A stretch of 64,000 nt of DNA, taken from contig CAVONQ010000014.1 of assembly GCA_963697335.1 (NCBI GenBank), positions 32,001 to 96,000 on the forward strand. Direction: 5' to 3'. The notes under the pieces are model-generated. The model saw only the letters and a program-made list of their open reading frames with translations. It had not been told where the DNA came from and made no database searches. Made by a program: the position numbers and the translations under genes. Of this stretch, positions 6,496 through 56,796 are shown piece after piece. This DNA is from an uncultured cyanobacterium (GTDB taxonomy: Bacteria > Cyanobacteriota > Cyanobacteriia > PCC-6307 > Cyanobiaceae). The first letter of the stretch is position 1, and every line of letters begins with the position of its first letter.

Positions 6496-6822
6496 CGCCG
6501 GCCGGCATCAACACAATGGTGACCCGGCTGGGACTGCGCCAAAGAAGCCAGCTCGGCCGCGGCCGGCCTGTTGTAGATGACACTATTTTACATTGGCAGG
6601 TGGTGGCTTCCATCTTCTCAAGGTGCCACTGCAGCGGCCCCCGTCCCGGGTAGAGCACCAGCGGGCCACCGGTCGGTCACAGCAGCCGGCAGCTGGCGAG
6701 GTTGATCGCCTACGCCAGGCCTTACATGAATGGGGAAATCTGCCAGGCCTGCGCCGTGCGCGTAGTGGGGATCCTGAGGGGCCGACACACACGCTGGCGT
6801 GAACCAGCACCTTATTTTCCGA

Positions 6823-7374
6823 CTACATGTCTTCTGGAAATGCGCGGAAATAGTCGGCGCGCAGCTCATCGTGATAACCCCAGCCAATAGGGACCGAAGA
6901 CCTCATAATGGCTTCCAGTCTCACTTTGAACGCGTCCCGGCTTGCGTCGGGCAAGCTGCAAACCTTTTCGATGGCGCGATGATACATCAGGTTAAGGGCA
7001 GCATAAAATCCTTGATCGATATCGCCGTAGTCGATCGTCAAAGCGTTTCCTTGCTCCACGAAAAAAGTCATCAGCTCCGCCTCTCCCCATGCATCGCCGA
7101 CGGCCTTGCTGTAGTCAGCGATGGCTTTTTTGGCTTTTGCAATCTGAATGGGCTTGTTCTTTTGGACATCCGGGTACATGCATTCGTTGATGATTTTCTT
7201 GTAGAACTCCAGCGGGTTCTCAACGACCGCCAGCCGGGCATGCAGAAAGGCCTGATTCTCCTTCGAGAGACGATAAAGGTCTGCAACCAAGTTGACCAGT
7301 TGAGGCGCATCCAGCTTCATGGCCTTTGCCTTGACGTCTGACCAGGATGCCCCAGCTTTGTTCCCTTTCCTCAT
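6823..7374 (-). CDS. Hypothetical protein, probable integron cassette ORF
   Basis: 183 aa, lower GC, starts 26 nt after the GTTAGTA core of an attC-like site. Confidence 0.8.
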   Translation of the reverse strand: MRKGNKAGASWSDVKAKAMKLDAPQLVNLVADLYRLSKENQAFLHARLAVVENPLEFYKKIINECMYPDVQKNKPIQIAKAKKAIADYSKAVGDAWGEAELMTFFVEQGNALTIDYGDIDQGFYAALNLMYHRAIEKVCSLPDASRDAFKVRLEAIMRSSVPIGWGYHDELRADYFRAFPEDM

Positions 7375-7400
7375 GGGCTATGCCTTTCTTTCCTGCCTAT

Positions 7401-7525
7401 TACTAACGTTTGAGCTAAGCGGGGACGACGCCAGGACGCCAGGCCCGCGCGGTGCAGCATGTACCCCGGCCCCGCGCAGGCCTGGGGACCTACCGTTGGC
7501 GCTCCGCTTGAGCGAGGGGCCAGGC
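7401..7525 (-). mobile_element. attC-like site (about 125 bp) with degenerate R'' box
   Basis: Minus strand: GCCTGGC-CCCTCGCTCAAGCGG...CCAGGCCTGCGCG...CGCGCGGGCCTGG...CCGCTTAGCTCAAAC-GTTAGTA; imperfect palindrome, GCTCAAGCGG/CCGCTTAGC pair with one extra base. Confidence 0.8.
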
Positions 7526-7611
7526 CTCACCTTTAGCGTCCGTGTCGCGGTGCGGTGTGAGCTTAGTAGCATAAGTAAACATAGAATCAAATTTTTCTGT
7601 AGATCGTCACG

Positions 7612-8304
7612 ATGGTGAGAACTGTGAGAAAGCTGTTCGCTTGCCTTAATGGCGCACTTGCTCTCGTGACATGGTTCTTTCACGAGGCCATCAGGTCTTG
7701 GTTTTTCGATAAAGTGGTTCAGCAAATGAACTCCGTCGAAGCGGACTTGATTCAGTACGGCCCCCCGGTAATCTTTGCGGCGATCTGTATTTGGCTGCTC
7801 GTCGTGCCACGCCAGACGAGACATCCGGCTAAGGGTGCTGGGATCGATCGTCCGGTGGGGGAGAAGCCAGCGCTGAAGCCAACGATGTCTGGAGGAAGCA
7901 TATTTGAACCTGGCGCGCCAGACATGGCCAAGAGCCATACTGGAATTGCGATAAATGCGAAAGTCTGGAACGTTGGGGGTGCGTCCGTGGCGACGAGTTG
8001 GGCCTTGAAGGTCATCATTCCCGGTCGCCTTCCTGTGTCGGGCCAGTTGACTCAAATACCCGACTTTCTAAGTCTTAGCGGTGCCATCAATAGTGTAGTT
8101 ATTCGGGGTGACGACGCGCTTGACAGGAAGGTCGCAACGGAAGTCATTGGTGGCACGCCGATTGAAGGGACTCTGCTGTTCTACGTTCCGTTGCCGCGAA
8201 GTGCAGTGATGACGCCCGACACTGTTCTTAAACTATCGTTCAAAGACATTCTTGAGGTCCAGACAGTGAAGGCGCAGCGTCTTGGCGATTGGAAGCATCG
8301 CTAG
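7612..8304 (+). CDS. Hypothetical membrane-anchored protein (two N-terminal TM segments), inverted relative to the cassette array
   Basis: 230 aa ORF, lower GC, between attC-like and attI-like sites. Confidence 0.65.
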   Translation: MVRTVRKLFACLNGALALVTWFFHEAIRSWFFDKVVQQMNSVEADLIQYGPPVIFAAICIWLLVVPRQTRHPAKGAGIDRPVGEKPALKPTMSGGSIFEPGAPDMAKSHTGIAINAKVWNVGGASVATSWALKVIIPGRLPVSGQLTQIPDFLSLSGAINSVVIRGDDALDRKVATEVIGGTPIEGTLLFYVPLPRSAVMTPDTVLKLSFKDILEVQTVKAQRLGDWKHR

Positions 8305-8349
8305 CGAAGGCGTTCGGATTGGGTGCGTGATTGGACGTAGAGATGCGAG

Positions 8350-8492
8350 GTCTAACTTATTCTTCGGCGGTTTCCGTGCACCACTCCCAAAGTCAAATCT
8401 CTTTCCGATAACCAACCGTAGATCATGGACTGCGTGGGTGTGAACGGTTGTGATTGCAGTGGTTTTCAGCTGATTCCCTCAAACCGTAGGAC
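8350..8492 (-). mobile_element. Putative attI-like site
   Basis: Minus strand CTACGG...CTACGG...CACGGAAACCGCCGAAGAATAA-GTTAGAC; same end layout as 45604-45630. Confidence 0.45.
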
Positions 8493-9107
8493 GTGTTCGC
8501 GGGACTGAGAACCACTCGGAACCAGATCCCTACGCCTTGCCGCCTTCGTGCTGGAGACCAGCGGCCCTGGTCGATGCGCGACACCGGCAATAGCCAGCAG
8601 CGGCTGATGCGCTTGCCCCAGCTCTCCCCGGATCCACTCCCCTGGCCGCTCCACCCCACCCTGGCAGTTCCTGACAGCCACCCTCGATGCCCAGGAACCC
8701 GGAGAGCCAAGCATGACCCTCACCATCGAGACCCTGGTGGCCGACCCCCAGGCGCCATTGGGCTGGCGCAAGCGGCGTCTGGATCAGCGCGATTACCGTG
8801 GGCTCAGCCAACTCCCCGCTTGCTGGTACGCCAGCCATGGCGCAGCCTTCGGCGAGGGTGAACTGCCGCACCTGGTCCTAGCGACTAGCAGGAGCTGCTC
8901 TACCAGCCGTCGTTGCCGGTAAGTGTGCGCACCCGCGTGACCGAAGCCCTGGGCAGCAGCCCATCCAATGAACCGGTGGTGCTGGGTCCCAATACCGTGA
9001 TCGACTTGCCGGAGGGAGCCAGCCTCCAGTTCGTGGAGATCCAGGCCCGCTCGTTGGCCGAGCACCGTGCTTGGCTGGAGTCGCTCGGCGACGACGTAGC
9101 GGCGTGC

Positions 9108-28189: not shown

Positions 28190-28376
28190 CCCGGTCCGCG
28201 CCGGGAGAGAGGGGGCTGATCACAACGGCGAGCGTTCTGACTGAGGGGTGCTCCCCTGAGCGAACCCCATCACAGCTGCGGGACAGCGCCGGAGTCGCAG
28301 AGGGTCCAAGAACCCTCTCCCCACCGGACTTTCCTCCTTGCGTCCAGGGTGTGAACCACTGGAACCGTCACCCCAT
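28190..28376 (-). ncRNA. Cobalamin riboswitch upstream of the desaturase, with a 24-nt insertion
   Basis: GGTTCC...GAGGAAAGTCCGGTG[insert]CGACTCCGGCGCTGTCCCGCAGCTGTGA...GTCAGAACGC; downstream hairpin CCCGG-CGCGGA-CCGGG whose loop is complementary to CCCGC. Confidence 0.82.
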
Positions 28377-28413
28377 TCTGGTCAGGATGGACTGGAACTG
28401 ACGCATCAGGCGT

Positions 28414-29029: not shown

Positions 29030-29183
29030 CCCGGTTTCCGCGCCGGGCAGGAAAGAACTCAAAGCGGCGAGCGTTCTGGCTCAGGAGCAGGTCTCTCCTT
29101 CACAGCTGCGGGACAGCGCCGGAGTTGCACCGGACTTTCCTCGTTGCCTTCCGGGCCTGAGCCACGGAAACCACTCCTCCCCC
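29030..29183 (-). ncRNA. Cobalamin riboswitch upstream of hupE
   Basis: GAGGAAAGTCCGGTGCAACTCCGGCGCTGTCCCGCAGCTGTGA...GCCAGAACGC plus hairpin CCCGG-CGCGGAAA-CCGGG next to the start codon. Confidence 0.9.
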
Positions 29184-29223
29184 ATTGTGCTCCTGCCACG
29201 GGGATTCGGCCGCAGCCCACTGC

Positions 29224-43899: not shown

Positions 43900-45360
43900 A
43901 TGACCCGCACGATCACGATCGATCCCGTGACCCGCATCGAAGGGCACGCCAAGATCACCCTCCACCTCGATGGGGCCGGGCGCCTGGCCGATGCCCGCTT
44001 CCACGTGGTGGAGTATCGCGGCTTCGAAACCTTCTGCGAGGGCAGGCCATTCACCGATATGGCCGGGATCACGGCCCGCATCTGCGGCATCTGCCCGGTG
44101 AGCCACCTGCTGGCGGCGGCGAAAACCGGCGACAAGCTGCTGGCAGTGCAGCCGCCGCCGGCGGCGCGCCAGTTGCGGCGGCTGCTCAACCTGGCCCAGA
44201 TCTGCCAGAGCCATGCGCTCTCGTTCTTTCACCTGAGCAGCCCTGATTTCCTGCTGGGCTGGGAGAGCGATCCGGCGCGGCGCAATGTGTTCGGCCTGAT
44301 GGCCGCCGATCCCGATCTGGCCCGCGCCGGCATCCGGTTGCGACAGTTCGGCCAGCAGGTGCTGGAGCTGCTGGGGGGCCGCAAGATCCATTCGGCCTGG
44401 GCCGTTCCCGGCGGCGTGCGCACGCCCCTGAGCGCTGAGGCAAGGCAGTGGATCCTGGAGCGCCTGCCGGAGGCGAAGGCCACGGTGGCCATGGCCCTGG
44501 AGCTCTACAAATCCCTGCTGGATGGTCCGCTGCAGCGGGAGCAGAGCAGCTTCGGCGATTTCCCCTCGCTGTTCATGGGGCTGGTGGGGCCTGGCGGGCG
44601 CTGGGAGTGCATCGACGGCCTGATCCGCTTCACCGGCAGTGACGGCCGGATCGTGGCCGATGGCCTCAGCGAAGACGACTACGCCAGCTACCTGGGCGAG
44701 GCGGTGGAGAGCTGGAGCTACCTGAAATTTCCCTATTACAAGCCGCTGGGCTATCCCGAGGGGATCTACCGGGTGGGGCCACTGGCGCGGCTGAATGTGT
44801 GCGACTCGATCGGCACCCCCTGGGCCGACGCCGAACTGGCCGAGTTTCGCCAGCGCAGCGGCACTGAGGAGAGCGGCAGCCGCATCGTGACCTCCTCGTT
44901 TGCCTATCACCACGCCCGGCTGGTGGAGATCGTGGCCTGCCTGGAGGGGATCGAGCAGCTGGTGGCCGACGACAGCCTGATGGGCGGCCGCATCCGTGCT
45001 CGCGCCGACCTCAACGCCAACGAGGCGGTGGGCGTGAGCGAGGCACCGCGCGGCACCCTGTTTCACCACTACCGGGTGGATGACAACGGCCTGATCACCC
45101 GGGTGAACCTGATCATCGCCACGGGCCAGAACAACCTGGCCATGAACCGCACCGTGGCCCAGATTGCCCGGGAGTACTTCCCCGAACGGGTCGCCGACGG
45201 CGCCGAGATCCCCGAGCCGCTGCTCAACCGGGTGGAGGCGGGCATCCGCTGCTTCGATCCCTGCCTCTCCTGCAGCACCCATGCGGCGGGGCAGATGCCA
45301 CTGCACATTGAGTTGCGGGATGCGGGAGGTGAGTTAGTCGCGGAGCGGTTGAGGGATTGA
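43900..45360 (+). CDS. hoxH: [NiFe] hydrogenase large subunit HoxH
   Basis: [24 protein letters not shown] plus cleavable C-terminal tail. Confidence 0.97.
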
Positions 45361-45458
45361 GGGGTGGGCACCAGGGGTCAAGCCCCACGGCTGAGGAACC
45401 TCCCTCAAAGAGTCCACGCTCTTGCCTGGGATGGCAGCGGTACTTGGCTGTGTAGTCG

Positions 45459-45630
45459 CGTGAACGGTCTTATGCGGACCCGCATAAGACGCAAGGGCCT
45501 CGAAGTGGCCACCCAGAAGCCGCTGCGATCAAAGGGCTCTTGTAGTGTGGCCCTGAGATGGGGGCGCTCTTATGCGGCTGCAGGTAGATGGGGTCAGATT
45601 TTATACGGGTCCGCCCAATCAGCGTTAGCC
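45459..45630 (+). mobile_element. Array-leading recombination site (attI-like, or unusually long attC)
   Basis: TCTTATGCGG twice, palindrome TCTTATGCGG-AC-CCGCATAAGA, ends TTATACGGGTCCGCCCAATCAGC-GTTAGCC; core complementary to the next attC R''. Confidence 0.65.
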
Positions 45631-45676
45631 AAATGAACAGCTCCCTGCTCTTAGTGCATTTCTAGAGGATGGACTT

Positions 45677-46372
45677 ATGTTTCCAGCTTATTCACTGAAT
45701 GAAGTCTTGCGCGAGATTGCCACAGCCTTTAGATCTCGCTACCAAAAAGAAGACGGTCAAAGAGTTCGCATGGTCGGGCTGCTATTTGCCCCACCTGGCG
45801 CGGCAATTAGTAAAGCCGAGATACTGCCTCGCCTTGATGACTTTCATCATCGTTCAGGGAACAACATCGATTTCTTCTGTGCAGGTTATGGCGCTTATTG
45901 GCCAGAGAGCTGGGTTTCCGATGCACAGCCAGTAACAACTACTACTGACCCCAGACTTGGCCTAAAGACAGATTGGCTTTACAGTTCAAAATACTTTCAC
46001 GACTTTCGCAAGGAGATAGAATCTACGGCGAAAAGCTGGAAATATAGTGGCGAGGTTGATCTTGTCTTGTTAAACGCCTATCCAGATACCGATGATCTGG
46101 CCAGACTCGATTTCACAGGTGCTGTTGTACTACGTATTGACCAGCTAAGAAACGATAAATTGATCGAGTCTGCACCTAAATTGCTCGAAAAGATCTTTCG
46201 TTATGCCGAAGTGCAAAGAGGGGATGATCCGACATGGGGTTTTAGTGATGAGATGGGATTTAAGGAGGGCCGTTCCTGGTTTGTAGAACTAGTTCTGTCT
46301 CGGCTCCCTCTGAAAACAGGAGAATTATGGAAGAGAGGGAGTCACTATGCCGTTTTAAATCTTACCCAGTAA
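45677..46372 (+). CDS. Cassette 1: hypothetical protein
   Basis: 231 aa, AT-rich, GAGG RBS, bounded by GTTAGCC and attC. Confidence 0.85.
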   Translation: MFPAYSLNEVLREIATAFRSRYQKEDGQRVRMVGLLFAPPGAAISKAEILPRLDDFHHRSGNNIDFFCAGYGAYWPESWVSDAQPVTTTTDPRLGLKTDWLYSSKYFHDFRKEIESTAKSWKYSGEVDLVLLNAYPDTDDLARLDFTGAVVLRIDQLRNDKLIESAPKLLEKIFRYAEVQRGDDPTWGFSDEMGFKEGRSWFVELVLSRLPLKTGELWKRGSHYAVLNLTQ

Positions 46373-46437
46373 AATGCTCGCATGGGAGAACTCGTCTATT
46401 CTATTGCTCACCACTATTGCAGCCAATTCCGCATTCT

Positions 46438-46527
46438 GGCTAACATCACCATTCACCAAAGCCACCGCCGAGAGGATTCTGGTTATCTCAGAAACTCCCT
46501 CCGGACTGGTGATGATGGGCGTTAGCC
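46438..46527 (+). mobile_element. attC site 1
   Basis: GGCTAAC...CATTCACCA...TGGTGATG...GTTAGCC; 90 bp, L boxes pair with one extra base. Confidence 0.88.
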
Positions 46528-46559
46528 TATGCGCAATTAAGACATGTTAATTCAAACGG

Positions 46560-47339
46560 ATGGCCAAGAGAAAACCACATTCGCTTGAATCACTTTCTGA
46601 TCGGGGCAGGCGACTGCTGCACGATTCGCATGATCCCACCGGAACACACAGTGAGTTTGAGAGCTGGGACCACGATGTTGCCAAATGGCTGGACACGGAA
46701 TTTCCTGACAGAGGGTTCTCCGCTCAATGGTCATCCATCTCCACGTCGCCGCTCGTTTTGGGAGGTTACTACAACGATGACCCAGGGTCATGGGCTGCCT
46801 TTCGAACTGCTGTGCAACGCCGCCTAAAATTTCTCAGCGAGGTAATACAAACGAAGTCGCATCGACCACCGACACGCACTAGTGCTACAGACACTAGACG
46901 GGTATTCTTGGTACACGGTCATGATGAGGCGGCTCGTGAAAAGGTCGCTCGATTTCTCGAAAAACTGGGGTTTACACCCATCATTCTCCACGAGCAACCA
47001 AACATGGGGCGGACGATTATCGAGAAATTCGCCGACTATTCCGATGTTGCTTATGCCGTCGTATTGCTAACGGCTGATGATATTGGCGGCACGAAAGACA
47101 CAAACGCAAATCAACTTGCAGCAAGAGCAAGGCCCAATGTGCTTTTTGAACTTGGCTACTTCATTGGCAAACTGGGTCGTGATCGCGTCTGCGCCCTCCA
47201 TGAAACAGGTGTCGAGATCTTGTCAGATTACAGTGGCGTGCTTTACGTGACATTGGATGTGACGAATGCTTGGCGCCTACATCTGGCAAGAGAAATGAAA
47301 GCCGCGGGGCTTCCCGTAGACATGAACAAAGCGATTTGA
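46560..47339 (+). CDS. Cassette 2: TIR-like nucleotide-binding domain protein (Cap12/PycTIR-type domain) with unknown N-terminus
   Basis: VFLVHGHD, PIILHEQ, TIIEKF, AVVLLTADD, ARPNVLFELGYFIGKLGR, SDYSGV. Confidence 0.9.
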   Translation: MAKRKPHSLESLSDRGRRLLHDSHDPTGTHSEFESWDHDVAKWLDTEFPDRGFSAQWSSISTSPLVLGGYYNDDPGSWAAFRTAVQRRLKFLSEVIQTKSHRPPTRTSATDTRRVFLVHGHDEAAREKVARFLEKLGFTPIILHEQPNMGRTIIEKFADYSDVAYAVVLLTADDIGGTKDTNANQLAARARPNVLFELGYFIGKLGRDRVCALHETGVEILSDYSGVLYVTLDVTNAWRLHLAREMKAAGLPVDMNKAI

Positions 47340-47422
47340 TTACCGGCTAACAATGAAGTCATGTTCAACTGCATGCCAGTGAGGAAATGAGGGAATTTAT
47401 GAACCTAAGTCGTTCCTGGCTA

Positions 47423-47515
47423 GGCTAACAAGCCCCTCGAGTGGACAGGCCGCCACTAAACTCTCTGCTAAGCCACCCCAAGTTCCTTGCCTGCCACTCA
47501 GGGGCAGCGTTCGAA
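47423..47515 (+). mobile_element. attC site 2
   Basis: GGCTAAC-AAGCCCCTCGAGTGGACAGGC...GCCTGCCACTCAGGGGCAGC-GTTCGAA; two extra-helical bases. Confidence 0.9.
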
Positions 47516-47801
47516 GGGTCAAGCCATTTCCTGAAGGATGTTGGAAGAAGATCTTTGGTGGCCTGAGAAGCGGTCTGCCATGGTAGAGAGTATAGCCCGT
47601 CTTGAAAAGCAGTTCGCAAAGTTGTTAGGAGGACTTTGTTATCTCAGGAGAATGTCAAGATTCTAATCTAGGTATGAGCTCCTTCGCGACGGAAATCCAG
47701 CAGATGCTTGGTCTGCAGGCAAGAGCTCTGCTCCACTCGCTGAAGACATCGTTAAATTTCCTCTCTGTTCACTGCATGGCGCTGCGATGGGGGCATAACA
47801 G

Positions 47802-49841
47802 ATGAAACGCCTCGTTTACATGACAAGCCCCCGCAAGAGCAGATCCGCTGCAGCATCAGCATCAAGGCAGCGCGTTTCGGCAGCGCCCACGATGGAATCC
47901 GGCGGCGTGGAGCGGCGCCTCACCGCACGACCCGACAGCGTTGACTTCCGGGATCTGATGTACGTGCCAACGTTGGTGGAAGTTCCACCAGAAAAACCGA
48001 TCGCCGACTATCGAGCGCTCGGCATTCCGGTGCTTGATCAGGGCAGTGAAGGCGCCTGCACGGGCTTCGGGCTTGCAACTCTGGCCAACTACCTGCTGGC
48101 CACCCGAAAAAGCCAGCCTGATTCGGAATCGGTAAGTCCGCATATGGCCTATAGCCTCGCCCGCCGTTACGACGAATGGGCCGGAGAGGACTATGACGGC
48201 TCCAGTTGCCGCGGTGCCATGAAAGGGTGGCACAAGCACGGAATCTGCACCAAAAAGCTCTGGACGAAATCGAGTCCGGCTAACAAGGGCCTCACACAGA
48301 GCGTGAGTGCTGATGCAGCCAAACGACCGCTTGGTTCCTACTTCCGGGTCAACCACACCGATTTCGTCGCCATGCACGCGGCGATCACGGAGGTGGGTGT
48401 GCTCTACGCAAGCGCCCGAGTTCATGAGGGATGGCAAAAAGTGGACAGCGATGGCCGCATCCATCCAAGCGACATCCCGCTCGGTGGTCACGCCTTCGCG
48501 ATCGTTGCCTATGACGCCGATGGCTTCTGGATCCAGAATTCCTGGGGGCCGACATGGGGGAATGAAGGGTTCTGCCATCTCGGCTATGCCGACTGGCTAG
48601 CGAATGGCAGTGATGCCTGGGTGGCCCGCCTGGGAGCGCCGGTGTCCATGCGATCCCCCGAGGGCACGGCTACGGGCCCGGTGGGCGCTGTTCGATCGAA
48701 CGCTTTCCAATACAACCAGATTCGCCCCCATGTGATCAGTTTGCGGAATGATGGTCAGCTCGATCCGCACGGCAACATCGCGACCACAACCGACCTGCTG
48801 GGGGAGATCATCAATCAGGATTTCATTCGCATCAGCGAGGGATGGAAGCGGCGACGGTTGGTGCTGTATGCCCACGGTGGGCTGGTTCCCGAAAATGCGG
48901 CGCTCCAGCGGACATCCGAATTCCTTGAGGAGATGCTACCCAAGGAATGCTATCCGCTGGCATTCATCTGGAAGAGCGATTATTGGAGCACCCTGCGCAA
49001 CATTCTCGAGGAAGCCACTCGCCATCGCCGCAATGAGGGTTGGATCGATGCGACCAAAGACTTCATGCTCGATCGCCTTGATGACGCGCTGGAACCCGTA
49101 GCACGTCATCTCACCGGTAAAGCGCAGTGGGACGAGATGAAAGAGAACGCTCAGCGCGCCACCACCTCGGCCCGCGGTGGCGCACGCCTGCTCGCCGCCG
49201 AGTTGGCGAAGCTGATGGCGAAGGAGCCCTCCATAGACCTCCATCTGGTGGCCCACAGTGCCGGCAGCATCCTCCATGCCCATCTGCTGCGTCACCTCAC
49301 GGAAGACCTTGGAATTACCGTGGCGTCCTGCACACTCTGGGCACCAGCCTGCACCACTGAGCTCTTCGAAGCCACGTATCTCCCTGCCCTCAAGAGTGGA
49401 CTTCTGCAATCTCTCCATCTCTACACTCTCAGCGACGTGGCCGAACAGAATGATCACTGCGCCCGCATCTACAACAAGTCCTTGCTCTATCTGGTGTCGC
49501 ATGCCTTTGAGGAACATGTGCGGATACCCCTGGTCGGTCCCCATGGAGAACCACTGCTTGGCATGGAGAGGTGGATCAAAGCAAACCCTGATCTGGCCAG
49601 ACTCTTCAGCGGGAGTTACCCCGGCGTGAGCTGGACCCGCTCACCGAACGACGCTCCGTCCGATTCACCATTGGCGGCGCGTGCCACCAGCCATGGAGAC
49701 TTCGACAGCCGCCGCTTCCATGTCGTGACATCCACTATCGCCCGCATCCGGGATGATGCCGTCACCTCGATGGAGGTAAGCCGGCTCCAGCGCACAGCGG
49801 CATCTCGTTCGGCACGCCGTGGAATCCTGAATGATCTCTGA
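47802..49841 (+). CDS. Cassette 3: C1 (papain-like) cysteine peptidase fused to an alpha/beta-hydrolase-like domain
   Basis: DQGSEGACTGF, GGHAF, QNSWG; C-terminal YAHGGL and HLVAHSAGS. Confidence 0.85.
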   Translation: MKRLVYMTSPRKSRSAAASASRQRVSAAPTMESGGVERRLTARPDSVDFRDLMYVPTLVEVPPEKPIADYRALGIPVLDQGSEGACTGFGLATLANYLLATRKSQPDSESVSPHMAYSLARRYDEWAGEDYDGSSCRGAMKGWHKHGICTKKLWTKSSPANKGLTQSVSADAAKRPLGSYFRVNHTDFVAMHAAITEVGVLYASARVHEGWQKVDSDGRIHPSDIPLGGHAFAIVAYDADGFWIQNSWGPTWGNEGFCHLGYADWLANGSDAWVARLGAPVSMRSPEGTATGPVGAVRSNAFQYNQIRPHVISLRNDGQLDPHGNIATTTDLLGEIINQDFIRISEGWKRRRLVLYAHGGLVPENAALQRTSEFLEEMLPKECYPLAFIWKSDYWSTLRNILEEATRHRRNEGWIDATKDFMLDRLDDALEPVARHLTGKAQWDEMKENAQRATTSARGGARLLAAELAKLMAKEPSIDLHLVAHSAGSILHAHLLRHLTEDLGITVASCTLWAPACTTELFEATYLPALKSGLLQSLHLYTLSDVAEQNDHCARIYNKSLLYLVSHAFEEHVRIPLVGPHGEPLLGMERWIKANPDLARLFSGSYPGVSWTRSPNDAPSDSPLAARATSHGDFDSRRFHVVTSTIARIRDDAVTSMEVSRLQRTAASRSARRGILNDL

Positions 49842-49870
49842 AAGAAGCTCTCTGACCCTGAACTTCTCTG

Positions 49871-50053
49871 TTGGGTGATCTTCGGGCGAAGAGTAAGATC
49901 AGGTTTGAACGACTTGTCGGCGGCAGCCCTGATGATGTCAGGGCCGTTGGATCTGGCGCCCCTGAGTTAAGCATCAATGATGGTGCCAGCTCCAGGGTTA
50001 ATTGCCAGCAGAAGGGCCCGACATTCATAATCCTGTTGACCGGTGGCGAATAG
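49871..50053 (+). pseudogene. Decayed RelE/HigB-like addiction-module toxin
   Basis: ERLVGGSPDDVRAVGSGAPELSINDG...QKG..IILLTGG aligns with the toxin at 50506. Confidence 0.7.
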
Positions 50054-50342
50054 CCTTCACAGAGCATCGTTATTGAAGAAGCAGATGGAGGTGCGGCCTT
50101 AACGCAGATGCACTGGGAGAAATCGCACGTGCACAAGGAATGACACTGACCGAGCTCCAGACTGGCCATGCGCGCAAAAGCCTCGAAATGACGTTTTAAG
50201 GTGCTGGCAGCCAAGGCATTGAGGAGGCCCCAAAGGTCATCCGTTCTCTGGCGTGAAGTTGGGCTGAAGTGTGCTCAAGGATTTTCCCCTGAGTTGCAGC
50301 ATCACGGCAAGAGTACAAGATGGTGGCAACATTACCGCGCCC

Positions 50343-50433
50343 TTCGAACACACTCTTAGATTGGACAGGCCACCCTCAGATCCCTACTACGCCCCCAAGG
50401 CTCCCTGCCTCCCACTCAAGGGGAGCGTTCGAA
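50343..50433 (+). mobile_element. attC site 3 (diverged)
   Basis: TTCGAAC...TGGACAGGC...GCCTCCCACTCAAGGGGAGC-GTTCGAA; same family as attC 2 and 4. Confidence 0.85.
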
Positions 50434-50470
50434 GGATGTGTCGTGCTTGAGGGGAGCCAGCAAGGCAGCG

Positions 50471-50499
50471 TTGCGCGGTCGTAGCCAGGAGGCTACAGT
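50471..50499 (+). promoter_or_regulatory. TA promoter with palindromic operator
   Basis: TTGCGC-17 bp-TACAGT overlapping GTAGCC-AGGA-GGCTAC. Confidence 0.7.
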
Positions 50500-50505
50500 T
50501 GGTGG

Positions 50506-50810
50506 ACGGTTGAAGTCCGCCAGGCAGAGCGGTTCGTCCGATGGCTTTCAGGTCTACGTGATCTGAGGGGCCGAGCGAAGGTTCTGGCCAGGATCGAGCG
50601 CCTCATCGGTGGTAATCCTGGTGACGTCAAGCCCGTTGGGGCAGGCGTGTCGGAGTTGCGGATCAACTACGGCCCTGGATATAGGGTCTACTACCTGCAG
50701 AAGGGAACTGAGTTGATCATTCTTTTGCTGGCGGAGACAAGAACTCACAAGCCAAGGACATTGATGAGGCCCTTCTGTTGGCAGACAACCTGACGGAGGA
50801 GACCTTATGA
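50506..50810 (+). pseudogene. Cassette 4: RelE/HigB-like addiction-module toxin, ACG in place of start and 1-nt frameshift near 50727
   Basis: VEVRQ.ERF..WL...RIERL..GNPGDVKPVGAGVSELRINYGPGYRVYY; GGDKNSQAKDI lies in another frame. Confidence 0.82.
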
Positions 50811-51115
50811 AAACCACGACCACTCCCTACGACGTTGCCGAGCATCTCCGCACACCTGAGGAGATGGCGGCCTACCTCGATGCCTGCATCGAGGAGGCGG
50901 ATGGAGATGCTGCCTTCATTGCCAAGGCCCTGGGCGACATTGCTCGGGCCCAAGGGATGACCCAGGTGGCCAGAGATTCCGGACTGTCCAGGGAGAGCCT
51001 CTACAAGGCCTTGTCTGGAGAGCGCAGCCCGAGCTTCGACACCATCCTGAAGGTGGTCACGGCCTTGGGTCTGAAGTTGAGCGCGAGTGTGAGAAGCGAT
51101 GCGGAAGTGACTTGA
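50807..51115 (+). CDS. Cassette 4: addiction-module antidote (HTH, HigA-like)
   Basis: ALGDIARAQGMTQVARDSGLSRESLYKALSG..SPSFDTILKV. Confidence 0.92.
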   Translation: MKTTTTPYDVAEHLRTPEEMAAYLDACIEEADGDAAFIAKALGDIARAQGMTQVARDSGLSRESLYKALSGERSPSFDTILKVVTALGLKLSASVRSDAEVT

Positions 51116-51168
51116 ACATTGCAGATGCGGCGTTGGTCCGCATACGCTGGCTATGGAGATGCGACACC

Positions 51169-51258
51169 TTCGAACAAGCCCCTCGAGTGGACAGGCCGCC
51201 GTCGAGTCTGCTTCGCGAGCTATAGCTTCTTGCCTGCCACTCAGGGGCAGCGTTAGCC
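51169..51258 (+). mobile_element. attC site 4
   Basis: TTCGAAC-AAGCCCCTCGAGTGGACAGGC...GCCTGCCACTCAGGGGCAGC-GTTAGCC; outer arms identical to attC 2. Confidence 0.9.
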
Positions 51259-51307
51259 GCATCAGATGCCGAGGCTGGGTAGACTGGAGATTGTCTCTTT
51301 GGTGGCG

Positions 51308-51541
51308 GTGCCAACAATCCTGAGGAGTGGGCCATACCGGGTCTATTTCCACAGCCACGAGCCTAATGAACCTCCTCATGTTCATGTTGATCGTGATCGA
51401 GCAAGCTGCAAGATGTGGTTAAATCCTGTCGCGCTGGCCTCAAGCCTGGGATTCAAGGCGGCAGAGCTTCGAGACATTGAGCGGCTTGTGAGTGCCAACA
51501 GGGCTATGCTGGTAAAAGCATGGGAGGAGTTTCATGGTTAA
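51308..51541 (+). CDS. Cassette 5: DUF4160 family protein (putative toxin)
   Basis: PTILRSGPYRVYFHSHE..EPPHVHV...K.WL...AWEEF. Confidence 0.88.
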   Translation: MPTILRSGPYRVYFHSHEPNEPPHVHVDRDRASCKMWLNPVALASSLGFKAAELRDIERLVSANRAMLVKAWEEFHG

Positions 51542-51794
51542 TCCTGGGGCGCGTGTCATGAACGTGAGTTCTACAGATGACGTTCTTGTTGTCGAGCTTG
51601 AGGACGGCAGAACTATTTCCGTTCCACTCGCTTGGTATCCAAGGCTGCTGCATGCGTCTCAGAAGGATCGTGATGACTGGCAAGTCGCCGGTGGTGGCTT
51701 TGGCATTCACTGGCCGACTATTGATGAGGATCTCAGCGTCGAAGGTCTGCTCCGTGGAGCACCAGCTCCCCGAGTCCGTGTGATGAGCAGCTAA
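51534..51794 (+). CDS. Cassette 5: DUF2442 family protein (putative antitoxin)
   Basis: LEDGRTISVPLAWYPRL..A...GIHWPTIDEDLSVEGLL; TAA stop lies in the attC R'' box. Confidence 0.9.
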   Translation: MVNPGARVMNVSSTDDVLVVELEDGRTISVPLAWYPRLLHASQKDRDDWQVAGGGFGIHWPTIDEDLSVEGLLRGAPAPRVRVMSS

Positions 51795-51891
51795 CACAGT
51801 CATGCACCTGACCCGCCACCGCAGATTCAATTCGCCCTTTGAGTTGCGTTCACCCCAGCTCTTTGCTGGCAGGTGACGGCAAGCGTTAGCC
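51789..51891 (+). mobile_element. attC site 5
   Basis: AGCTAAC...GCACCTGACC...GGCAGGTGAC...GTTAGCC; 103 bp. Confidence 0.8.
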
Positions 51892-51933
51892 CCCCCAAGC
51901 AGCTCGCAACCCATCAACTAGCCCTGTGTTGCC

Positions 51934-52329
51934 GTGTCCAAGACCATCCAAGCCGGCCTCACTTACTTCGCCATGGTGTTGGGTGCGGGGTTTCTACTTG
52001 GCATGATCAGGATTCCGTTCCTGGTGCCACGCATCGGCGAGCGTTGGGCGGAACTGGCGGAGATGCCCATCATGGCGATGGTCATCTACCTGGCGGCGGG
52101 AGCGATCCTTCGCCGATTCCCTGAGATTGGCTCTCCGAGCCGGTCCTTGATCGCAGGCCTGCTGGCCCTGGCGCTGATGGTGGCGGCGGAATTGGCGCTG
52201 GTCAGCGTGGTGCAAGGCATGCCACTCATGGAATTCATCGCCAGCCGAGACGTGGTGTCGGGCTCGGTCTATCTCGTTCTGCTGCTGGTGTTTGCCGTGA
52301 TGCCACGGCTTCGGCTCTCAGCACGATGA
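51934..52329 (+). CDS. Cassette 6: four-TM hypothetical protein (no attC found after it)
   Basis: YFAMVLGAGFLLG.IR...AELAEMP...RD.VSG. Confidence 0.75.
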   Translation: MSKTIQAGLTYFAMVLGAGFLLGMIRIPFLVPRIGERWAELAEMPIMAMVIYLAAGAILRRFPEIGSPSRSLIAGLLALALMVAAELALVSVVQGMPLMEFIASRDVVSGSVYLVLLLVFAVMPRLRLSAR

Positions 52330-52351
52330 AACCAGCTCCCTTCTGCCGGCT

Positions 52352-52804
52352 TTGAGCCTTTCTTCAGCGCCGCCCCAGTGCCTGGTGATCGGCATCGGCA
52401 ACCCCCTGCGCGGCGATGACGGCGTCGGGGCCCTGCTGGCCGAGCAGGTGGGCGGCCGTTGCATGCACCAGCTCACGCCGGAGCTGACCGCCGATCTGGC
52501 GCCGTTGCAGCGGGTGCTGTTCATCGATGCCTGGCTGGCACCAAAGCAGCCCGGCCCCGCGCCCCAGCCCCGGCTCGACCCACTGCCGGTCGCTTCGCGG
52601 CCCGCTGGCAGCGGCGCCAGCCATCACCTCGAGCCCGCCCAGTTGCTGGCGATCACCGCGGCCCTCTACGGCCGTGCCCCCAACGCCTCCTGGCTGCGCA
52701 TCCCCGCCCACAGCTTCAGCCACGGCAACGCTTTCTCCCCCCAGCTCCAGGCCTCACTGCCAGCGGCTCGCCGCCTGCTGCGTCGCTGGCTGGGGGAGTG
52801 CTGA
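52352..52804 (+). CDS. hoxW: Hydrogenase maturation protease
   Basis: VIGIGNPLRGDDGVG, HQLTPEL, FIDA, SHH. Confidence 0.88.
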   Translation: MSLSSAPPQCLVIGIGNPLRGDDGVGALLAEQVGGRCMHQLTPELTADLAPLQRVLFIDAWLAPKQPGPAPQPRLDPLPVASRPAGSGASHHLEPAQLLAITAALYGRAPNASWLRIPAHSFSHGNAFSPQLQASLPAARRLLRRWLGEC

Positions 52805-52920
52805 GATCCAATCGGCTGGCCAGGCGGTAGTCGTTCGGCCGCGCGCTGCTCCGCCCAGCTGGCCGCGCTCGATCCTTCGTTTTCCATCCCCCAATCCGAT
52901 GAACACTCCTCAGGCACCCC

Positions 52921-53175
52921 ATGCTCGCGGTCAGCACCGCCATCTCCGGCCTTCTGGCCCTCGGGCTGGTGGCCGCCACGGGCGGCGAAGCCCTGGCCGG
53001 CAAGGCCGGCATGGAAAAATGCGCCGGCATCGCCAAGGCCGGCATGAACGACTGCGGCACCAGCAAGCACTCCTGCGCCGGCGAGGCCAAGGTGTCCGGC
53101 GACCCGGAAGAGTGGGTCTACGTTCCCACAGGCACCTGCAAGAAGATCGTGGGGGGAAAGCTGAAGAAGTCCTGA
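52921..53175 (+). CDS. DUF2282 (BufA-like) exported Cys-rich precursor peptide
   Basis: Signal peptide; EKCAG.AKAG.NDC...HSCAG...W..VP.GTC.KI.GG. Confidence 0.88.
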
Positions 53176-53257
53176 GCCTGCGTTGATCCAGGGGGCTCTG
53201 GTGTGGTGTGTCCTCCACCCTCCAGAGCCCCCGCCCTTCTGTTGCTCTGCGCCTGCC

Positions 53258-54082
53258 GTGGCTGATTCCAACATCCAGGGCGTAGGCGTGGGCCTGCGCC
53301 CTCCCCACTACGCCGACATCCTCAGCCGCTGGCCGGCACTTCCCTGGTTCGAAGCCCTCTCGGACAATTACCTCGGCGGGGGCCTGCCCCTGCATCACCT
53401 CAGCCTCATCCGCGAGCGCTATCCGATCACCCTGCACGGGGTGGGCCTCTCGCTCGGTTCGGTGGATCCGCTCAATCAGGCCTATCTCCAGCGCCTGAAA
53501 GCGCTGGTGGATCGGGTTGAGCCCAGTGTCGTGTCGGATCATCTGGCCTGGGTGTCCCAGGGGGGCCGCTATTTCCATGACCTCGCCCCACTCCCCTACA
53601 CCGAGGAGGCCCTGGTGCACGTGGCGGAACGCATCCAGCGCGTGCAGGACTTTCTGGGGCGACAGATCCTGATCGAGAACCTCTCCCCCTACGTGAGCTT
53701 TGCCGGAGCCGACTACCTCGAATGGGAGTTTCTCAGTGAGCTGGCCCGCCGGGCCGACTGTTTTCTGCTGTTGGATGTGAATAATGTGTTTGTCAATGCC
53801 TTCAATCACGGCTTCGATCCACTCCCCTATCTCGATGCCCTGCCCGCCGAGCGGGTGAAGGAAATCCATCTCGCCGGCTATGAAGAAGAGGGCAGCTTCC
53901 TGTTCGACACCCATGGCCGCGCCGTGCAGGATGGGGTCTGGGCGTTGTACCGGCAGGCCCTGCAGCGCTTTGCGCAGGTGCCGGCCCTGATCGAGTGGGA
54001 CACCGACATCCCCTCCCTCGATGTGCTGATGGCGGAGGCTGCCAAGGCGGAGGCGCTGCGCTCGGATCGAGCCCGGCCATGA
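53258..54082 (+). CDS. DUF692 multinuclear non-heme iron oxidase (MNIO, BufB-like)
   Basis: GVGLR..H, HGVGLSLG, SDHL, IENLS, LDVNN, EIHLAG, DTH, LIEWD. Confidence 0.93.
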   Translation: MADSNIQGVGVGLRPPHYADILSRWPALPWFEALSDNYLGGGLPLHHLSLIRERYPITLHGVGLSLGSVDPLNQAYLQRLKALVDRVEPSVVSDHLAWVSQGGRYFHDLAPLPYTEEALVHVAERIQRVQDFLGRQILIENLSPYVSFAGADYLEWEFLSELARRADCFLLLDVNNVFVNAFNHGFDPLPYLDALPAERVKEIHLAGYEEEGSFLFDTHGRAVQDGVWALYRQALQRFAQVPALIEWDTDIPSLDVLMAEAAKAEALRSDRARP

Positions 54083-54894
54083 AGCTGGCAGCGCTCCAGC
54101 AGCTCTTCGCCGCAGCGGCCCTGGGCACGGCCACTGAAGCCGAGCAGGCCCGGCTGGCCGCCCACCTGCAGGGCAGCCGGGTGCTGCCGGCCCGGCAGGG
54201 CATCGAGGCCTACCGCACCAGCGTCAACGGCAAACTGCGGCGCAGTCTTGAGCAGATCTATCCCGTGTGCCAGCGGCTGGTGGGCGAGGCGTTCTTCCAG
54301 GCCATGGCGTCTGCCTTCCTGGAGCAGAGCGTCTCCAACTCACCAGACCTGGGCGACTACGGCGCCGGGTTGCCCGCGTTCCTGGAGGAGTTCCAACCGG
54401 CCAGGAGCCTTCCCTACCTCGGGGATGTGGCGCAGCTGGAATGGCTCTGGCACCGGGCCTTCAATGCCCCGGATCAACCCAGCCTCAATCTGGAAGCCCT
54501 GGCTGCTGTGCCTCCCGAGCACTGGGATCGGCTCGTGTTCCGCTTGCCGGCCGGGGCCGCCCTGATCGCCTCCGACTACCCCATTCACCGCATCTGGGAG
54601 GTCAACACCCTCGCGGAGGCGGAGCACGACGAGATCGATCTCGATCAGGGAGGAGTGAGGATCTTGGTGTGGCGCAACGGCCACACCACCCGCCTCGATC
54701 TGCCCAGCGAGCCGGAGTGGCCGCTGCTCCAGGCCTTCGCGCGGGGATTGCCCTTCGGCGAAGTCTGCCGCCAGGGCGTGGAGATCCCCGGCGCCTCGAT
54801 CGCCGCCCTCCTGCCCCTCTGGGTGCAGCGCGGCTGGCTGCGGGAGTTCGAGCTGCAGGCTGCCGCTAGTGGATCAGAACAGGGCGATCCATAA
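54079..54894 (+). CDS. DUF2063 (BufC-like) partner protein
   Basis: YR......L...YP....LVGE.FF, DLGDYG, YLGDVAQLEW; ATGA overlap with DUF692 gene. Confidence 0.88.
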   Translation: MKLAALQQLFAAAALGTATEAEQARLAAHLQGSRVLPARQGIEAYRTSVNGKLRRSLEQIYPVCQRLVGEAFFQAMASAFLEQSVSNSPDLGDYGAGLPAFLEEFQPARSLPYLGDVAQLEWLWHRAFNAPDQPSLNLEALAAVPPEHWDRLVFRLPAGAALIASDYPIHRIWEVNTLAEAEHDEIDLDQGGVRILVWRNGHTTRLDLPSEPEWPLLQAFARGLPFGEVCRQGVEIPGASIAALLPLWVQRGWLREFELQAAASGSEQGDP

Positions 54895-55092
54895 ACTGCT
54901 GCGCCAGAAGGGTGTTGATGATGGCGCGCTGAGGGAAAGCGGATTTCAACAGGTGCTCGAGACACGATGAAGCGTCGCAACGCGCAGCAGCGATGCAGAA
55001 CATCAGAATGCCCAACAGCGTTAGTCTTCAACCAATCAGCCGCATGCGCTCTACAATGGTTGGCTTGTCATGAAAGAAGCCTGCTTCCAACA

Positions 55093-56796
55093 ATGTTGTC
55101 TCCATCCAAGCCATCTACCAAGCCCTGCGCAACAACCTTTGAGGAATTTGCGCGATTGGCAGACTATTCATTACTGGATGGCTTGAATGCTGATCCGGAT
55201 GCCACCGAAGATGGTGATGATCACCGGGTCAGGCAGGTCTTTTCAGGCCATTTCGTACCTGTCACGCCCACACCACTTGCCAACCCTGCCTATGTCGCCC
55301 ATAGCAGCACCTTGTTTGCTGAGCTTGGCCTGAGCGACGAGCTGGCCCTGAACAAGGACTTTCGCCAGGTCTTTTCCGGTGATCTGTCTGCCGCCCCCGA
55401 GCCCATGCATCGGGCTGGCTGGGCGACGGGTTATGCCCTGTCGATTTATGGCACCGAGTACATCCAGCAATGTCCGTTTGGCACGGGGAATGGTTATGGC
55501 GATGGTCGGGCCATCTCTGTCTTTGAAGGGGTGTTCAAGGGCCAGCGCTGGGAGATGCAGTTAAAAGGTGGCGGTCCCACACCCTATTGCCGTGGAGGTG
55601 ACGGGCGTGCCGTGTTGCGTTCCAGTGTGCGTGAGTTTCTGGCCCAGGAGCACATGCACGCTTTGGGTGTTCCCACATCGCGCTCGTTGACCCTCTATGT
55701 GTCAACATCCGAGACCGTCCTGCGGCCTTGGTATTCGCCGGAGTCCCGCTCCAGCGACCCCGATATCGTGGTGAGCAATCCTGTGGCTATTTCCACTCGC
55801 GTTGCACCATCTTTTCTGCGGGTTGGTCAACTGGAGCTGTTTGCTCGTCGTGCCCGGAGTAAGGCGCATCCGGGCGCCCTGGAAGAACTGCGCATGATCG
55901 TGTCCCATCTCATCGAGCGGGAGTATCGACAGGACATTGACCGAGGTCTTGCCTTTGTCGATCAGCTCGTTGAGCTGGCCAGGTGTTTTCGCGGCCGCCT
56001 CACCGCCCTGATCGCCAACTGGCTGAGGGTGGGGTACTGCCAGGGCAACTTCAACAGTGACAACTGCGCCGCTGGTGGCTTCACGCTCGACTATGGCCCA
56101 TTCGGATTCTGCGAGCTCTTTGACCCTGCCTTCCAGCCCTGGATCGGCGGCGGTGATCACTTCGCCTTCTTCAATCAACCCATGGCAGCCGAGGCGAATT
56201 TCCATATGTTCTGGACAGCTCTGCGACCACTGCTCGCAGACGATGCAGAAGCCTTGGACAGTTTCGACCACGTGCGTGGTGACTTTGCAGCAGCGATGGA
56301 AACGGAACTCCAAGCCATGTGGGCCGCCAAGCTTGGCTTGACCGAATCCAATCCGCCCCTTGTGACGGCATTGCTGCAGTTGATGGCGGAGACAAAGGTG
56401 GATTACACCATCTTCTTCCGCGAATTGTCTCATCTGCCAGACCAGGTCTCGGCCCTGAAAAGCAGCTTCTACGTCAACCCATCACAACAACTCGATCAGC
56501 AATGGCAGTCTTGGCTGCAACGCTGGCGCGACCTCGTCGGCAACGACCGTGATCCGGTTGAGGTGTCAGCACAGATGAAACAGGTGAACCCCAAATACAC
56601 CTGGCGAGAGTGGCTGATTGTTCCCGCTTACGAACAAGCCATGAAGGGCGACTACGCCTTGGTGAGGGAGTTGCAGGACGTTCTTTCCCATCCGTACGAT
56701 GAGCAATCGCAGGAGGTGGAAGCTCGCTACTACCGCTTGAAGCCTGAACAGTTTTTCCATGCAGGTGGCGTTTCGCACTACAGCTGTTCGTCGTGA
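55093..56796 (+). CDS. selO: Protein adenylyltransferase SelO/YdiU family
   Basis: [46 protein letters not shown]-terminal SCSS. Confidence 0.92.

Follow-up and report, generated by a model that had tools for sequence, protein, structure and literature searches.

The stretch analysed here, a window of 64,000 nucleotides (nt) on contig CAVONQ010000014.1 (C14 below) of an uncultured cyanobacterium of the Cyanobiaceae (assembly GCA_963697335.1, G000 below), contains an integron cassette array between hoxH and hoxW, the genes for the bidirectional hydrogenase's large subunit and for its maturation protease. Accounts of integrons present them as single platforms unable to move by themselves, and cassette arrays without an integrase gene (intI) are usually treated as relics or donors. 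The array in the hydrogenase locus has no adjacent intI and is headed by a complete attI module. Genomes, contigs and loci carry G, C and L numbers, and "relatives" are other genomes of the same genus unless stated otherwise. The main features are listed in window coordinates.

43900..45360, plus strand: hoxH, NiFe bidirectional hydrogenase large subunit (PF00374), intact open reading frame (ORF) of 486 aa, upstream flank
45450..45627, plus strand: attI module of ~180 bp, sharing homology with the spacer that follows intI and precedes the first cassette in the inverted-integrase integrons of the family
45625..46521, plus strand: cassette 1, ORF 45677-46372, 231 aa, unnamed family
46438-46527, minus strand: attC 1, 54.1 bits with covariance model R1
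46522..47509, plus strand: cassette 2, ORF 46560-47339, CAP12/Pycsar-type TIR protein (PF10137; PADLOC PDC-S35, E 4.5e-75)
47423-47515, minus strand: attC 2, 75.4 bits with R1
47510..50427, plus strand: cassette 3, ORF 47802-49841, 679 aa, papain-like (C1) peptidase, extended at its C-terminus (PF00112)
50343-50433, minus strand: attC 3, 47.8 bits with R1
50428..51252, plus strand: cassette 4, RelE/ParE-family toxin and helix-turn-helix antidote 50807-51115 (TIGR02683, TIGR02684)
51169-51258, minus strand: attC 4, 75.4 bits with R1
51253..51885, plus strand: cassette 5, DUF4160 and DUF2442 pair (PF13711, PF10387)
51789-51891, minus strand: attC 5, 51.9 bits with R1
51886..52329, plus strand: cassette 6 remnant, membrane protein of 131 aa, core site at its start and no closing attC
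52352..52804, plus strand: hoxW, hydrogenase maturation protease (TIGR00072 above cut-off), intact, downstream flank

A first-pass annotation, made from the sequence alone, had placed hoxH about 7 kb from its protease gene and described the cassette ORFs as lower in GC. Both statements hold, since 6,991 nt lie between the end of hoxH (45360) and the start of hoxW (52352), and the cassettes have 46-60% GC vs 66-75% in the hox genes. The annotation had also named five attC-like palindromes at 46438, 47423, 50343, 51169 and 51789. We searched the window with R1, which was trained on 41 attC sites from intI-adjacent arrays of other genomes; these sites were chosen with a hidden Markov model (HMM) partly seeded with the window's own sites, and their selection is thus not fully independent. 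With filters off, R1 recovered exactly the five named sites on the bottom strand (47.8-75.4 bits, E 1e-8 to 1e-14) and nothing else above 13 bits in the whole 64 kb. A heuristic attC scanner was dropped, as it missed 3/5 of the window sites and produced false hits, and an Rfam search revealed no family within the array. The bottom strands of the attC sites fold into hairpins (z -1.4 to -3.2), putative substrates of IntI. The complementarity between the core that opens a cassette and the R'' that closes it was as described, namely GTTAGCC/GGCTAAC twice, GTTCGAAGG/CCTTCGAAC twice and GTTAGCC/AGCTAAC once, in 5/5 cassettes, all co-oriented. The last ORF (51934-52329) starts with a core site and lacks a closing attC. 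An extra GGCTAAC was seen at 47344-47353, 76 nt upstream of attC 2 and just past the stop of the TIR gene. It may be what remains of an earlier attC; the intervening sequence up to attC 2 does not fold.

Cassette arrays commonly break assemblies, and in several relatives hoxH and hoxW fall on different contigs, so that misassembly, which the annotation had considered, had to be weighed. However, the same type of junction recurs in 21 genomes and in 9 metagenome loci, and a public contig of 199 nt equals 45284-45482 with zero differences, spanning the hoxH stop into the module. An assembly artefact is therefore close to inconceivable. The stretch is a real, IntI-built cassette array inside the hox locus.

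The leading site, which the annotation had described as ending in GTTAGCC (45624), is confirmed and turned out to be the end of a full attI module (45450-45627) with the following parts.

45452..45465, plus strand: left-end motif GTA-N8-AAC
45467..45490, no strand assigned: perfect palindrome of two IntI-box-like arms (fold z -4.4), conserved columns, putative accessory or operator site
45570..45577, plus strand: direct repeat of the box in the middle of the module, with columns conserved in alignment A3, putative accessory site of direct-repeat type
45601..45630, plus strand: attI core with L box, 5-nt spacer and crossover G/TT (G|TT) at 45624/45625

In this genome, an HMM built from 17 intI-linked modules (spacers) only matched the spacer of the integron on contig C16, a C2 site at E 3.9e-12 and the hox site at E 1.3e-11; two weaker matches lie in the window at 8364-8516 on the minus strand and on C7. 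A second model, R2, was made from 29 modules; it scores the hox module with 90 bits, a value that includes the module's own row in the training set. By their likeness to the core and to the attI1 layout, the conserved boxes of the module presumably bind IntI. Among 21 genomes homology ends at the attI crossover. The left-end motif occurs in 11/20 hox modules and in 41/92 modules scored, with a scoring that favoured the motif. It resembles an NtcA box, or else an IntI half-site. The NtcA reading is uncertain: a perfect GTA-N8-TAC was found in 7/92 modules and in 0/20 hox modules, the spacing to a -10-like hexamer is 19-20 nt vs 22 for NtcA, and a literature search on this reading gave nothing relevant. 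A left-facing second attI, suggested by the resemblance of the left end to AAC-N5-GTT, was discarded, as no array runs leftward from any module looked at. A TTCGRARGATC pattern was not specific to module-bearing units.

The annotation had classified the array as a CALIN, an integrase-less integron cassette array. This stands insofar as attC sites occur without a nearby intI; of the parts of an integron, the attI at the head of the array is present and the adjacent intI is absent. The array is nevertheless more than a CALIN, because a conserved attI module has been kept. The module also bears on a different origin, in which an attG (GWT) site that happened to lie there took up the cassettes, and attC x attC or attC x attG reactions built up the array with no attI at all. 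IntI does insert at GWT sites, and this has been proposed as an origin of small CALINs (bioRxiv 10.1101/2022.09.11.507474). However, the first crossover is preceded by 180 bp with homology to intI-linked attI modules, and this stretch is missing from loci at which hoxH directly neighbours hoxW. The plain GWT without an upstream att site that marks an attG-derived SALIN or small CALIN is thus not what lies here. This origin is largely refuted by the module homology, and we regard it as very improbable.

The module is a fixed feature of the locus in most of the genus. It starts 0-90 nt after the hoxH stop in 21/23 same-genus genomes with a readable hoxH 3' end, a set that leaves out G001, G011 and G025, where hoxH matches stop short of the C-terminus. 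In G017 and G030 hoxW follows hoxH directly and no module is present. The 17-module HMM matched 20/22 stretches downstream of hoxH, with E<=1e-7 in 16 of them and 5e-4 to 0.04 in the other four; the two that it missed are the genomes with adjacent genes. G022 adds the 21st module, by R2. In 11 relatives a single contig spans hoxH, the module and hoxW; there the interval measures 2.1-16.9 kb and carries attC matches in 10/11 cases, one of them weak. The interval is thus variable and not invariant. The label "Cyanobium", under which the annotation had framed the comparison, proved loose: in named Cyanobium and Synechococcus records outside the genus hoxH and hoxW are adjacent. Of 76 named hoxH loci searched, a module was seen at 2, possibly duplicates of genomes already counted; in 20 other picocyanobacterial records, named Cyanobium isolates among them, hoxW lies within ~220 nt of hoxH. 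Since the named picocyanobacterial records and most metagenome loci lack the module, adjacency of hoxH and hoxW is probably the ancestral arrangement. A HoxH tree could not place G017 and G030 so as to tell whether the dock, as we call a module that heads an array, was never gained or was lost there. In the distal parts of long hox intervals we noticed, by eye, similar sets of type I restriction-modification-like genes (G002, G013, G023, G005; L069, L076, L073, L080), with few attC matches. An eroded hoxH 3' fragment inside the interval of G002 was followed up and dropped, there being no module after it.

No integrase gene was found at the hox docks. A TIGR02249 search gave no match on C14, in line with the annotation, which had seen no intI in the window. 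The intervals of the 11 relatives with both hox genes on one contig contain none (0/11), neither do 41 metagenome hoxH loci (9/41 with module), and the closest intI match is >0.5 Mb from the hox dock in the four genomes that are closed or nearly so. A genome-wide search for integron integrases in this genome revealed a single match above cut-off, G000:C16:4662-5597 (466 bits), with no stop and with intact catalytic motifs, a candidate for a functional IntI. A second, broken intI lies at the start of C15. The C16 integron is of the inverted type, with intI, a ~180-bp spacer and cassettes all on the same strand, and this layout recurs at the intI loci of relatives. A conserved GGCAAC/GGCAAT-N-CTG motif stands ~25 nt upstream of most intI genes (L001, L036-L065); promoter element or half att-like site are possible readings. 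In the closed genome G012 the only intI-linked module (C1:994150-995573; L040, L090) is split by an insertion sequence and the orphan docks, those without an adjacent intI, are intact. The first unit at the C16 attI is a cassette-like element of 2.5 kb (G000:C16:2050-4485) with a tyrosine recombinase and a transposase judged by eye to be IS91-like. The same unit stands first at 4/10 docks of the closed genome G148 (L292-L295), where the copies are nearly identical. We did not count this as proof of IntI acting in trans, since the unit carries its own recombinase.

Sequence comparison shows turnover at the hox dock. Among 21 first-cassette stretches only those of G008 and G012 match each other. 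G012, the closest relative, has cassettes 2 and 6 in common with the window array and two different cassettes at the attI end; its copy of cassette 2 is 96% identical and sits at a different position in the hox array. Public contigs begin or cease to align at exactly the crossovers 45624 and 51885. Two begin at 45624, one of which covers cassettes 1-2 with other sequence upstream, and another of 28 kb aligns from exactly 51885 onward, through hoxW. The sequencing runs compared, one of them of RNA and used as contigs, contained at most 17% of the sequence words. In the closed G012 a 138-bp ORF-less cassette stands first at four docks. The copy at hox and the copy at an unrelated orphan (L143) are identical at 138/138 positions, the copy at the intI-linked dock shows 98.6% identity and the fourth 88%. 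The identity between hox and L143 is limited to the cassette, with different sequence on both sides, and homologous recombination is therefore unlikely. Since the cassette encodes no enzyme and the flanks differ, the simplest explanation is site-specific insertion by an IntI acting in trans, and the pair points to a recent event of this kind. The 138-bp cassette recurs, often first at docks (G000:C16:1875-2006, C7:221370-221507; G012 hox dock, L066:421-558); between its two copies in G000 identity is 97%. Its body contains a -10-like hexamer (TAGAAT/TAGGAT), and it possibly is a promoter cassette.

The module itself has been conserved. In 20 hox modules, the 30 columns that are conserved in intI-linked modules are 92% conserved vs 63% for the 112 variable columns. 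The spacers have a median pairwise identity of 0.45, below that of hoxH four-fold sites (0.76), and spacer identity tracks hoxH identity (rho 0.42, 0/2000 permutations as extreme).

These data have to be weighed against a frozen relic, in which a complete ancestral hox integron lost its intI and the arrays have been inert since, differences among species being old insertions, deletions or homologous replacement of the entire interval. That CALINs can arise when intI is lost is recognised (PMC8618304). Many other docks do carry intI 3' relics, with intI 3' sequence directly upstream of 13/28 modules in G115, ranging from one intact gene to ~35 nt; some hox modules are degenerate, and the distal parts of long intervals have few attC matches. 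On the contrary, in the 120 nt after hoxH no intI relic was found at 22 loci, the box columns are still conserved while the spacers approach random, and the identical cassette at hox and at another orphan of one closed genome is hard to reconcile with inert arrays. We consider a frozen relic unlikely.

With a probability of roughly 0.8, the stretch is instead a satellite attI platform served in trans. A ~180-bp attI module, made of the palindrome of two box arms, the middle direct repeat and the core, would have been gained between hoxH and hoxW on a single occasion, by an ancestor that most species of the genus share, and would have been inherited with hoxH thereafter. Having no integrase of its own, the module would receive attC cassettes at the G|TT crossover from an IntI encoded elsewhere (on C16 in this genome), with new cassettes pushing older ones toward hoxW; cassette excision by attC x attC would follow what integrons are known to do. 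The hox dock would be one of ~5 docks in this genome, and of up to ~28 in relatives, that draw on a common pool of cassettes. The integrase acting in trans that the annotation had proposed is thus well supported, by the intI on C16, by the dock turnover in relatives and by the identical cassette at unrelated docks. Judging from its sequence, the IntI of this genome may perform the reaction today. Several points weigh against a live platform. None of the six window cassettes has a second copy in its own assembly, and evidence for recent dock activity comes from relatives. Some hox modules look decayed (24 bits in G009; altered crossover in G003, G023 and G028), and therefore not every dock is live. 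G022 has the dock and no intI match in an assembly of 140 contigs, and 7/49 module-bearing genomes have no intI match at E<=1e-40. The conservation test uses related, non-independent genomes and a profile with 11 hox rows, so that its significance is overstated. Finally, the boxes could be kept for a promoter role and not for recombination.

Modules are several-fold more numerous than integrases. R2 matched 15/15 same-genus genomes with 2-20 matches each, a few of which are reverse-strand echoes. Of 121 genomes sampled from the family, modules occur in 49, intI in 45 and both together in 42; the ratio of modules to intI matches is 28 to 2 in G115 and 10 to 1 in the closed G148. We looked at 20 further modules of four closed or near-closed genomes, and found correctly oriented attC within ~5 kb downstream at 16 and a clear intI relic at 2. 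The window contains a second orphan.

8352..8515 (HMM 8364-8516), minus strand: second orphan attI module, 23.1 bits with R2 (E 1.2e-5), not among the R2 training rows

It heads a short array toward ~6700 (window 6700-8520), consisting of a cassette with an opposite-strand ORF, an attC-like hairpin (~7403-7530, 125 nt, z -1.9; no R1 match) and a further ORF. Elsewhere in this genome a lone attC (G000:C9:7964-8055) follows a restriction-type gene cluster and adjoins tRNA and ribonucleotide reductase genes (labels by eye); in G013 and G015 a module stands right after the same ribonucleotide reductase gene.

How such docks may spread is suggested by several arrangements. The intI remnants upstream of modules in G115 are consistent with one route in which a whole integron arrives and its intI then decays; most of their junctions were too eroded to serve as a test for GWT sites. 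Seven modules (in G015, G018, G026 and G115) lie at the 3' end of ORF-less units that start at another attI or attC crossover, and 7/74 modules with flanks have an attC match within 1.4 kb upstream. In G115 a block on C2 in which an intI relic and a module are joined to the fragment of a host gene is present three times. Both extra copies start right after an attC, at the position that matches a GTT of the intact gene with one or two changes, and would fit an attC x attG reaction, whose GWT consensus is given in bioRxiv 10.1101/2022.09.11.507474. On contig C17 of the same genome an intact intI with its own module (G115:C17:42255-43512; L239, L383) is the first unit at an orphan attI, and a third module follows 2.4 kb further down the array. 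The 33 full-length intI copies occur in 13 upstream contexts. The two modules nearest to the hox family by spacer identity (0.45 and 0.43; 93 others <=0.39) are cassette-borne. A tree of 111 modules, from which rows with >=60 gaps were left out, joins 19 hox rows and a long-branch orphan in one group (SH-aLRT 83) and does not resolve its sister. We give about even odds to the proposal that IntI moves the docking module, at times as a whole intI-plus-module unit, and so seeds many docks, of which the hox dock would be one, by attI x attI, attI x attC or attC x attG. If so, the integron of these picocyanobacteria would be a distributed, self-propagating system in which one integrase serves many docks.

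The position after hoxH could in addition be favoured by transcription. Read-through from the hox promoter into the first cassettes, and further to hoxW, would couple their expression to conditions that induce the hydrogenase, and the site would be retained for this reason. This addition would be compatible with a satellite platform served in trans. The hoxE-F-U-Y-H genes overlap or abut, the module begins within 90 nt of the hoxH stop, and several other orphans also follow the stop of a co-oriented gene (by eye). A consensus scan of 45200-53000 found no terminator-like site on the plus strand, and no sigma-70 promoter within the hox module, at a performance no better than chance (3 vs 2.6 promoters, 6 vs 6.3 terminators). 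However, equivalent modules stand at many unrelated loci, also after divergent genes, so that hox is not needed, and the hoxH-hoxW intervals of relatives reach 11-17 kb, some with long opposite-strand ORFs. For the latter reason hoxW is unlikely to depend on read-through generally, and we regard the transcriptional explanation as doubtful. In only some of the modules is the palindrome followed by a TAN3T-like hexamer. A promoter within the module is possible, with such partial -10-like hexamers as the sole sign of it.

The cassettes carry mixed contents. The cassette 1 protein has 729 homologues and no Pfam, NCBIfam or PADLOC match; its predicted structure (pLDDT 89.9; best structural match Z 9.4, root-mean-square deviation 2.6, 109 aligned) suggests a thioredoxin-like fold without the CxxC motif. 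The TIR protein of cassette 2 makes this cassette a candidate anti-phage gene. The cassette 3 peptidase falls into Atlas C1-peptidase clusters (0.98-0.99). In cassette 4 the toxin is frameshifted near 50726, where homologous contigs in all four sequencing runs are one base longer; cassettes 83-89% identical to it occur in three other arrays, and cassette 5 has ~70% identical relatives in other arrays. The DUF4160/DUF2442 pair is presumably toxin-antitoxin-like. By their family names, cassettes 2, 4 and 5 may serve phage defence or array stabilisation. The ORF of the cassette 6 remnant also precedes hoxW in three relatives (G012 with 96%, G007 and G016), and the remnant is probably the oldest, fixed insertion. 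Directly after hoxW lies a bufferin-type cluster (window 52921-54894) with a DUF2282/BufA2-like precursor (below cut-off), a BufB maturase (above cut-off) and a further ORF, followed by selO (54967-56796), which stands between this cluster and hypA; selO-like genes adjoin hoxW in some relatives, as judged by eye. The window also contains two cobalamin riboswitches (28210-28384 and 29049-29190, minus strand) and a tRNA gene (1445-1515).

Taken as a satellite platform, the integrase-less hox array keeps a selected attI and continues its turnover at a fixed site, as one of many docks per integrase. If this is true, counts based on intI underestimate the active capture sites in abundant freshwater and brackish picocyanobacteria. 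The module provides a testable attI sequence for a non-proteobacterial IntI of the inverted type, and docks of this kind may explain how chromosomal integrons get to new loci. Up to 17 kb can evidently come between hoxH and hoxW, and so break their probably ancestral coupling, while both genes stay intact. In the part of the literature open to us, neither the hox locus nor dispersed cyanobacterial attI modules turned up; the supplementary tables of IntegronFinder may list some of the arrays as CALINs. Cyanobacterial integrons are mentioned in passing in the available parts of PMC8618304, PMC3108266 and PMC8352920, and CALINs served in trans are mentioned in those of PMC9668308 and bioRxiv 10.1101/2025.06.18.660453.

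The comparisons that follow refer to the accessible portions of the sources cited. The hox array agrees with the CALIN as defined by Cury et al. 2016 (PMC4889954) in having attC sites without a nearby intI. There, however, CALINs are defined without attI and treated as donors or relics, whereas the hox array keeps a full attI under selection, can also receive cassettes and occupies a fixed locus across the genus. Chromosomal integrons with an inverted integrase are noted in PMC4889954 and PMC8352920. The complete integrons of our host are of this kind, with intI co-oriented with the array, the same module and attC families common to both, but the hox platform is a module without intI, and modules outnumber intI several-fold. 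The Xanthomonas CALINs at lamG and secF (bioRxiv 10.1101/2025.06.18.660453) likewise keep their position across species with intI elsewhere. In the accessible text no attI is mentioned for them and they are read as ancestral activity, while for hox the sequences indicate attI retention, selection and recent sharing. A Shewanella prophage CALIN, M16-3 (PMC9892861), is also an intI-less array that opens with a copy of the cognate attI; it is a single case beside a complete integron in a prophage, whereas the hox dock is fixed in the genus and belongs to a set of up to ~28 dispersed docks per genome. Finally, the Delta-attI-type cassettes of class 1 and 2 integrons (PMC12901181) are units bounded by attI-derived sites that IntI can excise and insert. 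These carry a truncated attI and resistance ORFs, whereas the corresponding units in relatives of our host end in a complete module that captures cassettes.

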